Shown here: one piece after another, positions 23,221 to 63,498 of the stretch | Layout: each line of letters opens with the position of its first letter | How positions within the stretch are numbered: the first letter of the stretch is position 1 | From: Octopus vulgaris | Lineage: Eukaryota | Reading direction: 5' to 3' | NCBI GenBank assembly: GCA_951406725.2 | Contig: OX597823.1 | Span: forward strand, 110,174,001-110,238,000 | Length of the DNA stretch: 64,000 nucleotides | Notes under the pieces: model-generated | The model's database searches: none | The model's input: the letters and a program-made list of their open reading frames with translations, nothing else | What the model was told of the DNA's origin: nothing | Made by a program: the position numbers and the translations under genes

Positions 23221-24454
23221 CGGTCCCCCACCCCTTTCGGAGGTGTCTTCAGCTCTGGTGTTGGGTGCATGTCTTCTTTCTTCTTCTTCTTTCTTCTGTT
23301 CTCTGGCCTCTTCGATGTATCGTCAGCAGGTCCCAGCCGGTGACTAACTGACCTGTCAAATTTTTCCCTCTAAATACCTGCCCACAGCCTCGAGCAGGCA
23401 GTCATAGCAAGTTGTCACGTGACACTATCTCACCTAAACTGACTAGTGAAGGCGCGCAGTTTTAGCCCGCGCATTTTCTAAACGACCGTCACCTGTCAGT
23501 CAGCGAAGCTGATTCAGTGTCAGCTTGTCTCACCTAGTGATGTTATGACTTTCTCACGGCATGTTATGACTTTCAAGCCATTTTCGGTCTTCCCGCTTTA
23601 GCCATATATAGAAGTTGGCTTTTTCGACCGCCTCCTGTACTCTCCTTATTAGTTTTCGCAGCTCCGAGCTAGAAAAATCAATTCTTCTTTTGAAAAGCAT
23701 TGTAATTTTCCTTTCAATGAAGCCTCTAGCCCCCACTGCCAGGTGATAATATTTGACATTCCATCCATGTTCTCTGTATTCTTCGATTAGCTTTTCGTAC
23801 CTCTTCTCCTTACGTTCCTCTGCATTGCCGATGTTCTCTTCCCAAGGTACTGTCATTTCTAGTAAAATTCCCATTCTCCGGTCTCTGTTCCATAGGACTA
23901 AATCTGGTCATTTTGTTGTTTTTATTAGTGAAAATATTACTTGTCTTTCCAAGTCCGTGGCCACTTCCCAGTATCTCTTCCATCTTTCATCTATCTCGTA
24001 TACTTTACTTGTAGGCCTGGTTTTATATCCTTTTCCCTCCTTGTGGAAGTATACTTTCTTGCGTTTTTCTACTTTTGGGTACTCTCCCCTATTGTACCTC
24101 TCGATCTTCTCCTTGAGTGCTGCGCCTATAACGCCGAGGACTTGATTATGCCGCCATGTATATCTTTCGAGTGCTTGTCTGCAACTTGACAGAACATGTC
24201 TAATCGTCGCTTTCTCTCCGCATCTACATTCATCGGTTGTTTTTATGTTCCACCGGACTAAGTTCGCCGGTGAGGGTAGAACGTCGAAGAAAATTTTAAA
24301 TACAGAAGACAAAACAACAAAAACCCAAGAAAACCTAAAGACAGTAGTATATTAAATGAAACCTATATACAGACGTTGGATATATTAATGGAAACATCAC
24401 TTTTTATTTAATTACGTGTTTCTGTTGGCAATATGATAAACTAAAAACTATTAT

Positions 24455-40329: not shown

Positions 40330-40740
40330 AGCTATGGTAATATATGCGTTGGTCATTGTAGATTCTGTGTTGCTCACTCATGACCATCGGCCAACTTTCT
40401 TTTCCTAAATTCAGTTTCTTTCTTTCTTTTCTTCTGATCAGCTACAATAGATAAGACGCATCTTTGTCGGTCTCCTGTCAAATCTTGTTTCTCTAGCGTT
40501 CGCCACTTCACATCGTCATGGCTTAACATACCTTACTATTTTCACTGTCCTGTTTTTGTTATCAACTTTGACCCTCCGCAAATCTCAAATCCTATTTAAT
40601 TTGCTTTGCGGGGGCAACTGTTTTGACGAACGCCGCACATCTTGTCATAAATGCTCGAAATGTGGAGTAGATAAAACAGCCGACAACTGACGAAGGGTCG
40701 TTCTTTATGTTGCTTCTCTTGTTAGAAGCATAGAAGCATA
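40330..40740 (+). mobile_element. Penelope-like element 3' end / pseudo-LTR remnant
   Basis: '..ATSHRHGLN' (~40502-40528) resembles the terminal GLN motif of the PLE GIY-YIG domain; 40490-40715 is homologous to the reverse complement of 46020-46255. Confidence 0.5.
40636..40698 (+). ncRNA. Non-circularly permuted hammerhead ribozyme (predicted cleavage after C40641)
   Basis: caca-TC-ttgtc-ataaat-gctc-GAAA-tgtg-(17 nt)-gacaa-CTGACGA-a-gggt; all core nucleotides and three stems present. Confidence 0.75.
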
Positions 40741-41651
40741 GAAGGTGCTTGTAACGACATGAATACGACATACTAGGGGATACATCTAGGAGCATTGCGG
40801 AACGATTAATGAACACTTGAGACGATATGACGACGAAAAACAGTCCTCCATACTCTACCAACGTGTCAGGGACCAACATGGAGGCAACATGGGTCAACTT
40901 GACATCCACATCTTATCCAAGCACCCAAGGGACCCAACACTCTGACAAATACGTGAGTACGTTCTCATAAATGTATCTTCCCCAATACTAAATAGGAAAT
41001 ATACATAGTATATATACTAGATATCATACACCCCATATCCACAGTTTACACAGGTAGAGAAGAATAGTTAGTGGACTGTTATGAGATAGATGTATGTGTG
41101 TGTGTATGTGTATGTGTGTGTGTGTATATGTATATAAGCATATGGATATGAAAGTAAACAGATCAACATGCAGACGGATAGATACATAGGTTATATGAAC
41201 AGAGAAGCACACATATGTAGATGCACATCCATACATACAAACACGGTACGTAGTTGCAAAACACACACACACAAACTCAGACATGCACACATAAGGAGAC
41301 ATGGATACACACACACATATACAAACACACACACACACACACACATACATAAAAACACACAAATACGGACACATGAATATGCAGAACACAAAATACAAAT
41401 ATACGCACATACATACATATATACATATGTACGCACACACATACATACATACATACACGCACATACGTGCATATATACATACATGTGTAGGCATACACAC
41501 ACACGAACGCACTAACATGCGCACAAACAAACCAAAAGAACGCAGTGTGAACAACGGACAGAGTCAGAACTATTGAAAAGGTTTTAAGAAGCAACGGAAA
41601 TTTTAGAAAAGCAAAAATGTAAGAAGTGGAAATTTTACCGGTGAGTGTATA

Positions 41652-45774: not shown

Positions 45775-45822
<48 letters not shown>

Positions 45823-45904
45823 ATATATAAGTATTTGCATATATGCATATATACATACATATATGTATATACGTACATATATATCTATGTATATACTTGT
45901 ATAT

Positions 45905-46257
45905 GTGTGTACAGGACATAAAAAACGTAGACAAAATGAGAAACGAGAACATAAAGAACATAAACATATAAAAGGAACTTTTTTTCGAACCACGGATAAA
46001 ACAATCAGAGAAACGAGACTTGCAACATAGGAACATTCCCTTCATCAGTTGTCCCCATAAGTTGTCCGCGTTTCGAAGGTAGGGACAAGACGCGACATTG
46101 TTAAAACAGTCCTTCCCGCAAAGGGAAGTAGAAACATTTGGAATTTTCTGCCGTGAGGTGGAAGTGGTAACAAAAGCAGGCCAGTGAGAACAAAACAGTA
46201 AAAACAAACGGTGAGGGCTGTTAAGCCAAGACGATGTGAAGTGGAAAACGCTGGATA

Positions 46258-46260
<3 letters not shown>
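45905..46260 (-). mobile_element. Penelope-like pseudo-LTR copy between (TA)n tracts
   Basis: Homologous to 40490-40715 in the opposite orientation. Confidence 0.6.
46038..46097 (-). ncRNA. Non-circularly permuted hammerhead ribozyme (predicted cleavage between 46089 and 46088)
   Basis: Minus strand: tgtcgcg-TC-ttgtccc-ta-ccttc-GAAA-cgcggaca-acttatg-gggacaa-CTGATGA-a-ggg. Confidence 0.75.
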
Positions 46261-46297
<37 letters not shown>

Positions 46298-51480: not shown

Positions 51481-52860
51481 TAGATATTCATTGGAGTAAT
51501 GAAAGTTTTGGCATTGAGACTGGATTTCAACTCCATCTTCACCCTTTTCTGATACGCCTCGTTGACCTTGACTTTCATTTCTCTGTGTAGAATGTCATCC
51601 AGCTTCAAAATACCTAAATGTCTATACCCACTACCGTCGAGTTCACCCATGGTCTCGCCTGATGGTAACTGCAATCCCCTGCAGGATGCTTTCTCCCCAC
51701 TTTTCATATTAAGTACTGAGCATTTGGTAATCCCAAATTCCATACCGATGTCCCTAACACACTTCTCGACTGCTTTTAAGGAATCTATCTGCTTTTCACA
51801 TTTCCCAAACAATTTTATGTAATCCATAAACAGAAGATGGTTCAGTTATGGGCTTTTCTTCCCACATCGGCAACTCATCTTAACTTTCCCAGGTATCATT
51901 GTTATGGGTATTAGTACAATTATAAATAATAACGGAGAAAACAAATCACCTTGGAAGATTCCCCTTTTAATAGCAACTTCTTCAATAAATACATTAAAAA
52001 ATAAAATAAATGAGCCCTTTTAAAGCCTAGCCAGGCTCATGGGCCCAGTTTCCCGGTTTCAAAGGCGTATGTGTTCCACAGCTGGACGGGACGCCAGTCC
52101 ATCGCAGCGTTACTCATTTTTGCCAGATGAGTGGACTGGAGCTACGTGAAATGAAGTGTTATGCTCAAGGACGCAACGCGTCCAGGAATCGAAACCACAA
52201 GCTTACGATCATGTTGCTGACACCCTAACCATTAAGCTACGCGCCTTCCCAAGAAATAGATTACTTGAGTACAATTTGGCTTTCCGCTCTTTCGTGCTAT
52301 GCATCAGAAAATTTGTGATGGTGTCAATAACACTAAACATCTGTAGGCATTCAACGCTCCAGGAATGAGTCATCGTATCATTTGCCTTTTTTAAAGTCAA
52401 TCCAAGCCATAAACATATTTGTATGATGTTTTGTTTTTTACAATGCCCTAAGACTGTTTTGTCGATGACCAGGTGATCCTTGGTTTCACGAGAACTCTTC
52501 CTACAACCCTTTTGTTCCTTTGGTAGAGCTTCTTCCTGTGCCAGGAAAGTGTATGTCTTTGCCGCACTTATTCCAGTGAGTATCTTCCCATGCTATGGGA
52601 CGGTAGTTTCCCCACAATATTCCCCTTTCTTCTATCTTTCATTATAAGTGCTGTCCTCCCAGTCACCATCCACGCGAGGACTGTACCTTTCTGAACACAC
52701 TCATTCAATTGAGCTGTTAGTATTTCATGCAGTCTTTCAGCCAGAAGCCATGAATCCCATCTGGTCCGGGGGCTTTCCAGTTAGGCACTTTACCCACTTG
52801 TTCTTTCACATCACCCGTGCTTATGACAATATTCCTTTGTTTCTTTCCTACCTACCTCGG
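51480..52860 (-). mobile_element. R4/Dong-clade RT fragment interrupted by a SINE
   Basis: NWKAPGPDGIHGFWLK..EQKGCRK..KDHLVID..DFKKAND..IKRGIFQGDLFSPLLF..HLLFMDYIKLF..DIGMEFGITKC..YRHLG. Confidence 0.85.
51997..52248 (-). mobile_element. tRNA-derived SINE with CORE-like and V-domain-like segments, nested in the Dong RT
   Basis: Head 'ggcgcgtagcttaatggttagggtg..ggtttcgattcc', CORE-like 'gcgtccttgagcataacactt', V-like 'tgcgatggactggcgtcccgtccag'. Confidence 0.8.
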
Positions 52861-57244: not shown

Positions 57245-57551
<307 letters not shown>

Positions 57552-62192: not shown

Positions 62193-63498
62193 GATGGTTG
62201 CCAACTCCATTTCGAGTAGAGCCATTGCCCGATTTCTTTATGTCTTAGAATATCATCGATGAGCTGCACGAATACGGCTTTTGAAGCCTCCAAAGTCTTG
62301 CATGCTTTGTGACAATTAGAGCAAGAAAACTTGGTAATTGTATAGTTTACAGCTCCATGAACTTTGCTATGCCTTTTCAAACCACTTTTTGATCTGCATA
62401 CTTTATGACAGAGTATTCATTCGAAATCATCTGTCCGTCTATAACCATTGTGCAGTTGGGCAACGTGTGATTTCATTTGGCTCTTTAGCCCAGCCTTACT
62501 TAGACAAATCTTTCTATATTCATCACATGTAAGATCATCACGTTCATTAATGTTTGTCATAACATCATTCCTGTCAATTTTCCTCATATTTTTTTCTTTT
62601 GTTCTTTGCATCCTCCATTCTCTCCCTTTCAAAGTCATTTTTGCCTTCATACACAACCCTTTTCCATTTTTCTCGGCAATGCGCTAAATCTTCCCAATTG
62701 TCAATTGTAACATTTATCTTATTCAATCCCGACTTCAGACAATCTCTGTACCTCGTATTTGGTTTGTGGGACGGACGCTTACCAGTCACTAATTCTCCGT
62801 AAAAAAACGTTGTTTAGGCATTCTGTTATCTGTCATTCTGACTAAGTGCCCACTCCATCTCAATCTGCACTGCAATAGCAAAGCTTCAATACTGAATCCT
62901 TTCCCTCTTTCAAGCACTTCATCCTCACTCACGAACATTTTCCAGATGATCCTGGAAATCCTTCTGAGACATTGTTGATGAAAACGTTCCATAAGTTTTA
63001 AGTGCTTACGATACACACCCCAGGTTTCGCAAGCATACGACAAAGAGGTTAATATACATATATTGTATACCTTAATCTTTGTCGCAGTGGAAACACCGTG
63101 TCTAGACCATAAGTGGTCTTCCAGTTTGTCAAAAACAAAACTGGCTTTCTGAATGCGTAGTGATACTTCATCATCATGTGTTTAGTGTGCTCCCCAAGTA
63201 AACAAACTTAGAAACCACAGCAAGTTTTCTTCCATACACGAACATACCAGGTTCTATGTATGGTATTCTTGGAGTTGGATGAAACACGACAACAGTTTTG
63301 GTTGGATTTATGGTTAAGCCTAGTGCCTCACAAGCCATTGAAATTGCATTCATAAGATTTAGCATGTCCTCTTCAGTATGAGTGACAATATGACATCATC
63401 CGCATAGAGAAGATCTCTAATAAAAGTTGGGGGCGTTCTTGCCTTAGCTGACAGTCTTCCGATGTTAAATATTTTTCCTGTTGTGCGATATCTGATAT
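62193..63498 (-). mobile_element. 5'-truncated RTE-type LINE (RT C-terminus plus C2H2 zinc fingers), frameshifted
   Basis: YIRYRTTGKIFNIGRL..FIRDLLYADD..GLTINPTKT..FVYLGS..YACETW..ERFHQQCLRRI..RLRWSGHLVRMTDNRMPK..; C2H2 fingers; ends ggcaaccatc(atgt)n. Confidence 0.9.

Follow-up and report, generated by a model that had tools for sequence, protein, structure and literature searches.

The described hammerhead ribozymes that lie closest to the motif analyzed here are the rearranged forms of Eckert et al. 2023 (PMC10085705). The consulted portions of that paper lay out six permutations of the cleavage (S), GAAA (G) and CUGANGA (C) blocks and assume that block C is uninterruptible; type SGC (HRIMA-1 and its variants) has the order cleavage block, GAAA, CUGANGA, and type CSG is known from two sequences. 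In the pseudoknot (PK) hammerhead (PDB 8YDC; PMC11300833), pairing with a distant strand replaces helix II, and G10.1 follows A9 and closes a loop. Minimal type I hammerheads of Penelope-like elements (PLEs) and non-LTR retrozymes are described, in the portions consulted, as circular type I motifs; their helix III is weak, and they are considered to act as dimers (PMC4209133; bioRxiv 10.64898/2026.07.22.740005). Naiad PLEs lack canonical hammerheads according to the consulted portions of Craig et al. (PMC8557442), where only 'HHR_core' and 'HHR_half_core' were flagged. Our literature search turned up neither permuted hammerheads reported from Naiads nor a break at the A9/G10.1 junction, nor any published hammerhead demonstrated to be active when that junction is open; a precedent might be contained in subscription papers, Weinberg 2015 or supplements.

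The window, a stretch of 64,000 nucleotides of Octopus vulgaris DNA (contig OX597823.1), contains two copies of a hammerhead-like motif, here called target and sister. The minus strand from 46097 to 46038 reads, in order, CGCG-UC, TTGTCCC, TA, CCTTC-GAAA-CGCG, an 11-nt linker, GGGACAA-CUGAUGA and AGGG, and the part order is identical in the sister on the plus strand (40636-40697). The original prediction had regarded the flanks as homologous to 40490-40715, and alignment of 46265-46012 with 40482-40723 bore this out (66.5% identity over 266 columns, E = 8e-21). Its reading of the parts was also accurate: stem III is CGCG-U/A-CGCG in the target and CACA-U/A-UGUG in the sister, stem I of the target is TTGTCCC/GGGACAA, the two cores differ solely at N7, and GUC ends at 46089, placing the predicted cleavage between 46089 and 46088. 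The linkers do differ in length, but the shorter second linker is private to the target copy and is no subfamily trait; N7=C is likewise private to the sister. Since a descriptor scan of the window returned exactly these two copies, and none in 40 Markov-shuffled windows, the match exceeds chance. A search of 45950-46280 with Rfam gave four matches at E up to 10, no hammerhead among them, and no Rfam hammerhead reached the gathering score in 20 related loci; none would be expected because the helices are crossed. Over the whole window, microsatellite matches dominate among the 150 of 454 Rfam matches listed.

Table 1. Features of the target and sister loci (coordinates of the window).
Feature	Coordinates	Strand	Basis or remark
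Target: 5'-truncated non-coding Penelope-like repeat copy, subfamily A1, in (TA)n	45780-46262	-	ends approximate
Stem II 5' strand GAAGG, gives G10.1 (46115)	46111-46115	-	covariation
Peripheral helix P4 5' strand, stem III extension; 3' partner lost in target copy	46102-46109	-	covariation
Stem III 3' strand CGCG, U16.1 (46090) and C17 (46089)	46089-46094	-	predicted cleavage 46089/46088
Stem I strand past cleavage site, TTGTCCC	46082-46088	-	sequence, covariation, descriptor scan
Stem II 3' strand CCTTC, C11.1 = 46075	46075-46079	-	sequence, covariation
Core GAAA (G12-A15.1) and stem III strand CGCG	46067-46074	-	sequence, covariation
Linker, degraded in target; family version is AGUA internal loop and P4 3' strand	46056-46066	-	
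Stem I strand GGGACAA	46049-46055	-	sequence, covariation
Core CUGAUGA (C3-A9), final motif element	46042-46048	-	sequence
AGGG past A9	46038-46041	-	conserved in target family only
Sister repeat copy, 3' end cut by another element	40360-40723	+	start approximate
Sister ribozyme copy, subfamily B1	40612-40693	+	sequence, descriptor scan
Sister stem II 5' strand	40612-40616	+	
Sister AUC	ends 40641	+	
Sister GAAA	40657-40660	+	
Sister CUGACGA	40687-40693	+	

Stem II proved to lie elsewhere than predicted. The original layout implied that CCTTC pairs with AGGG past CUGAUGA, but the stem II registers past CUGANGA had no excess of double changes in an alignment of 74 copies (87/500, 208/500 and 500/500). 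Instead, the covarying partner of the strand that precedes GAAA is a GAAGG located upstream of the cleavage block, at 46115-46111. Three adjacent pairs of this upstream helix are doubly changed in 33, 34 and 33 of the 74 copies, and the path between its states is stepwise and always paired: GAAGG/CCTTC, GAACG/CGTTC (in L182, L171 and L201), GAGCG/CGCTC (in L060) and GAGCA/TGCTC. The conserved stem II partner is the upstream GAAGG and not the bases past CUGAUGA. CCTTC is able, as had been cautioned, to pair with a GAAGG over G8/A9; that GAAGG is present in A subfamilies only, and the pairing is not conserved. The proposed interval, 46038-46097, contained the correct parts but fell short of the conserved stem II partner, which lies 18 nt farther, so that the full motif of the target copy is 46042-46115(-). 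At its other end, AGGG offers stem II a weak 3-bp alternative partner, and a small hairpin begins there.

A fourth covarying helix, P4, extends stem III past an internal loop in which AGUA lies opposite GAA, and which may resemble a loop of the sarcin-ricin type. The core of the target copy is intact, and the 3' strand of P4 has been lost through a private change. In the target family the helix order is II5'-[III'-UH-I]-[II'-GAAA-III]-[I'-CUGANGA], which leaves A9 unjoined to G10.1: the G10.1 that covaries is found 73 nt upstream of A9, not directly next to it or 1-2 nt away. The family carries the hammerhead core (CUGANGA, GAAA and UH) together with G10.1-C11.1, A15.1-U16.1 and three covarying helices that abut the core, helix II being formed with the upstream strand.

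Both stem III changes that had been offered as compensatory evidence are CpG-type transitions. From two copies they are weak evidence and could by themselves reflect decay; we therefore grouped copies into subfamilies (183 full-length copies out of 280 profile hits). All 16 pairs of stems I-III were Watson-Crick in each of six subfamily consensuses with 11-61 copies, and a three-copy AB consensus had two broken stem III pairs, both at CpG sites. The consensuses present stem III as CGCG/CGCG, CGCA/TGCG, CACA/TGTG, CTCA/TGAG and CGTA/TACG, and stem I in two states, TTGTCC/GGACAA and TTGTCG/CGACAA, with the disputed changes fixed in the consensus of the sister's subfamily. Compensations at this level include transversion pairs, from C-G to G-C in stems I and II and from G-C to U-A in stem III. 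Between A1 and B1, the subfamilies of target and sister, there were six double changes and no broken pairs at 11% flank divergence, a pattern reached in 0 of 200,000 neutral simulations, even at doubled rate. The alignment of individual copies comprised 74 of 101 full-length copies (27, mostly with indels, were left out). Here the whole structure was 92.7% paired, compared with 38-51% for slid-register controls, and contained 199 doubly changed cells vs 73.6 in shuffles (0/500). A non-circularly rearranged hammerhead with selected pairing, as originally proposed, thus finds its covariation in the larger alignment of 74 copies and again between subfamily consensuses, and we regard the conserved structure of the family as real with near certainty.

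The target locus is one decayed genomic copy of a Penelope-like repeat with several thousand copies. Across the genome (2.8 Gb, 227 contigs), there were 3,437 occurrences of a 16-mer of the motif and 1,534 of a longer gapped pattern, each with a control count of 0, and target and sister as queries returned more than 3,000 candidates each. The repeat unit is ~750 nt long, non-coding, variably truncated at the 5' end and set in (TA)n, and copies often come with inverted or head-to-tail partial copies; the consulted portions of Craig et al. (PMC8557442) give the same anatomy for Penelope-like elements. Single copies decay, with mismatches at 14/329 positions in the core vs 410/5301 in the flank, an intact core in 15 of the 33 A1 copies and mutation of CpG sites at about 15%. 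Selection on the structure, as claimed originally, therefore acted on master elements and not on the target and sister copies, both of which are decaying.

No ORF was linked to the target family at any of 30 tail-motif loci or among the Naiad endonuclease and RT loci examined, and the ORF-adjacent copy (1/20) is a lone insertion; an N-terminal GIY-YIG and C-terminal RT ORF within the same element, as in Naiad PLEs, was not found for this family. The family is likely a non-autonomous Penelope-like retroelement. As no ORF was found by which to place it, its origin is inferred from the RNA layout and insertion anatomy that it shares with Naiads, which make it likely of Naiad type. Two candidate partners were rejected. 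One is the GIY-YIG fragment next to the sister, which comes from a different PLE family; the 3' part of that family does not contain the motif. The other, an intact C-terminal-endonuclease PLE beside one copy (L435/L437), accompanies 1/20 copies and lies inside (TA)n.

Several other features of these repeats were recorded. The fragment directly abutting the sister, at 40724-41000(+), is a broken C-terminal GIY-YIG sequence whose family has 1,254 candidates, and in L072 another member of that family is inserted within the target-family repeat. A conserved tail motif ending in the splice-donor-like GTAAGT is found at both ends of the ~750-nt unit (L005, L020, L161) and has 321 exact copies. An off-by-one pattern gave 109 matches (L076-L105), many of them from A-subfamily copies whose GAAA block carries an extra A. 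Two young PLE families (L437-L456 and L305-L307) have intact RT-then-endonuclease frames of 753 and 784 aa, and copies of the former are 97-99% identical to each other.

By block order (cleavage, GAAA, CUGANGA) the target is not type I, II or III, and the consulted portions of Eckert et al. 2023 (PMC10085705) assign this order to type SGC. Target and type SGC share the succession of S, G and CUGANGA, three core helices that cross one another, a short stem I-II linker and an intact core. The stem II 5' strand, in contrast, precedes block S in the target instead of directly following CUGANGA, so that block C is broken, although a 3-bp alternative is possible in the target family; the layout falls outside the six permutations given in the portions consulted. 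An extra helix joins the outer sides of stems I and II in type SGC; of the four covarying helices detected in the target family, the one besides stems I-III is P4, an extension of stem III. With type CSG the target shares, again from the portions consulted, the cyclic order and the II-III and I-II linkers, but I'-CUGANGA is shifted from the 5' to the 3' end, as in a CSG permuted circularly and cut inside the core; the C-S-G order itself is absent from the target and present in two Naiad relatives, L350 and L364. The target resembles the PK hammerhead in pairing a distant strand in place of helix II, and differs from it in that this strand supplies G10.1 and the block order is non-circular. Like the minimal type I PLE hammerheads and retrozymes, as described in the portions consulted, the target family is a repeated, non-coding, PLE-derived unit; unlike them, it has a long helix III with P4 and a crossed topology. 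To judge from its sequence, the family likely works like a hammerhead and belongs to none of the six described permutation types.

Naiad PLEs, as described in the consulted portions of PMC8557442, share with the target family (TA)n insertion, tandem or inverted partial copies, 5' truncation and the same RNA layout near the 3' end, and have an ORF of a kind that was not found in it. We read by eye the CUGANGA matches in consulted portions of the Craig consensus file S5 (54 Naiad families; motifs split by line breaks were missed). Ten entries had the split layout: three from Acropora (one with mismatches), one each from Octopus bimaculoides, O. vulgaris and Euprymna, and four placed by file position alone. 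An extra, partial entry had the split layout with a 2-bp stem I, and six entries were of type CSG by eye, three of them named Nippostrongylus (at least three nematode).

Eighty independent Naiad-type metagenome loci, for which the first query was N-terminal GIY-YIG plus RT, were then scanned with a four-part descriptor that allowed any order. At the cut-off score of 13 only two orders appeared, split (11 loci) and C-first (6 loci), and at a score of 14 the counts were 10 and 6. Ten split loci had the motif downstream of the ORF and one upstream. Of the C-first loci, two were contiguous CSG forms (L350, L364); the other four (L368, L369, L371 and L388) were CSG hammerheads in which two small hairpins, 23-27 nt in all, separate A9 from G10.1. 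The descriptor gave no match on 270 kb of antisense strand, and 63/80 Naiad-type loci had none; many of these are truncated, and 16/80 loci extended less than 250 nt past the ORF, but several offered over 1 kb of 3' sequence and contained no CUGANGA. G10.1-C11.1 and U16.1-A15.1 were invariant in the split examples that could be parsed (13/15), the parser having demanded G at 10.1; their other pairs occurred as two to four types each, and the bases past A9 varied. RT identity between groups of split examples was 30-50%, and a preliminary, quick-search RT tree placed the split form in four separate groups. In the octopus genome, a second family has the split layout downstream of a Naiad-like RT, on the same strand, at 9/22 loci, and its motif, taken as a 14-mer of the published octopus Naiad consensus, had 554 exact copies vs 14 for a control. 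A search of IMG/VR yielded short GIY-YIG matches only. Two further S5 entries, from the portions consulted, deserve mention: one in part 16 has the S-G-C order with good stems I and III and no evident stem II, and a bivalve Naiad 3' end (the entry before Naiad_Obim) lacks the split layout. By eye, a stretch of the bivalve 3' end may resemble a twister ribozyme.

It is quite probable, in our estimation, that RNA of the family cuts itself at the predicted site. As an indirect indication, among 100 copies from one chromosome, chosen solely by the motif 3' of the site, eight 5' ends fell within 4 nt of the site. The upstream rate would give 1.6 (P = 3e-4) and the downstream rate 4.1, against which the excess is not significant (P = 0.06). 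The density of 5' ends stepped 3-fold across the site (P = 2e-4). The filter behind these counts had been revised to a dust-filtered rule; an earlier version, affected by indels and simple-repeat matches, gave no clear excess. The pile-up could also stem from RT stalling in the structure. RNA reads from three runs (383-663 each), which concerned 311 nt of the ~750-nt unit, came from both strands and showed no distinct end where cleavage is predicted; one run had a single 5-molecule start a few bases from the site, and the reads speak neither for nor against cleavage. Nested MFE folding failed to recover the structure (z -0.33 and 0.37) and gives no support because crossed helices are beyond its model. 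The target copy itself may be slower than its master or inactive, since P4 is lost and the GAAGG over G8/A9 competes. Separately, we noted that fold-back (inverted) junctions in L127, L145, L190, L246 and L256 have their start inside stem I or immediately 3' of it, several of them coinciding with the predicted cleavage site.

Could the motif be an ordinary type SGC hammerhead, with stem II formed by CCTTC/TGCTC and the GGG past an extra A, and with the upstream helix as a regulatory or folding alternative? Its S-G-C block order and 2-5 nt stem I-stem II linker are as in HRIMA-1, an extra nucleotide past A9 is common in PLE hammerheads (PMC4209133), and AAGGG is conserved in the target family. 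The extra-A register, moreover, keeps three pairs in every consensus (G-C, G-U, and G-U or G-C, possible in all seven) and beat shuffles in percent paired (0/500) and in covariation score (8/500). However, its double changes were not in excess (11 vs 7.8, 87/500) and its fourth pair is broken in 38/74 copies; among the nine split-form 3' UTR matches, six allow no pair past CUGANGA, whereas the upstream helix is 6/6 Watson-Crick in all nine. We consider this interpretation quite improbable. That the compensations are an artefact of chance, produced by deamination in dead copies and shared ancestry, gains some plausibility from the CpG nature of both stem III changes, the CpG mutation rate and the loss of an intact core in more than half of the A1 copies. 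Yet subfamily consensuses have these changes fixed, transversion pairs among them, the simulations never reached them, and unrelated elements have the same layout. At the family level this explanation is refuted, and we give it hardly any credence; it still accounts for private changes in single copies.

A hammerhead-derived fold that is real but non-catalytic, kept as a signal for RT-endonuclease binding or template selection, would agree with RNA-seq that has no end at the site and with the seeming absence of the motif from some Naiad lineages, and minimal PLE hammerheads do cleave poorly in vitro (PMC4209133). Against this stands the retention of every catalytic position, with N7 free, across elements with RTs 30-50% identical, as catalysis predicts. 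A cleavable NUH is also kept (family consensuses have C, A or U as H and no G), related CSG forms cleave according to the consulted portions of PMC10085705, and 5' ends are enriched at the predicted site. A non-catalytic fold seems unlikely to us.

The interpretation that we favor, and consider likely, is that the target is a decayed copy of a likely non-autonomous, likely Naiad-type PLE whose RNA is predicted to fold into a self-cleaving hammerhead with all three core helices crossed and without a backbone link between A9 and G10.1. What was observed directly is the part order, the covariation of four helices, a core that does not vary and, downstream of Naiad reading frames, an identical layout. 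In the proposed mechanism, helix II, formed by the upstream strand and the strand before GAAA, would stack on helix III and P4; docking of the last-transcribed strand, I'-CUGANGA, would then complete the fold and the active site, with A9 pairing with G12 while unjoined to G10.1. The RNA would cleave as a monomer past H17 by standard hammerhead chemistry, with G12 as base and the 2'-OH of G8 as acid (PMC11300833). As has been proposed for other PLE hammerheads, cleavage might divide tandem or read-through transcripts into single units. Some of these products may then be reverse-transcribed into (TA)n by a partner RT-endonuclease. The split form would amount to a CSG circularly permuted inside block C, an arrangement that tandem copying of elements could yield. 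The natural 23-27-nt insertions at the A9-G10.1 junction suggest that this link may be dispensable.

Somewhat less confidently, we think that Naiad-type elements across animals harbor a family of non-circularly permuted hammerheads that includes a seventh topology, that the CSG, inserted and open forms make up one series, and that the RNA of these elements is self-processed. If so, three published statements would be overturned: that Naiads lack hammerheads, that known organisms have almost no non-circular permutations in their genomes, and that the CUGANGA-stem II block is indivisible. Type CSG would gain a biological home, a route of permutation evolution would be visible in natural intermediates, and descriptor and Rfam searches would be overlooking thousands of hammerhead-type motifs in some animal genomes.

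Another PLE family is the source of two minimal hammerhead motifs of ordinary type I in the window, at 57316-57339(+) and 54380-54357(-); they are nearly identical, and both have an extra A past A9. Broken LINE-like reverse transcriptase fragments, recognized by eye from translations, lie at 23557-24351(-), 51483-52780(-) and 62577-63395(-).
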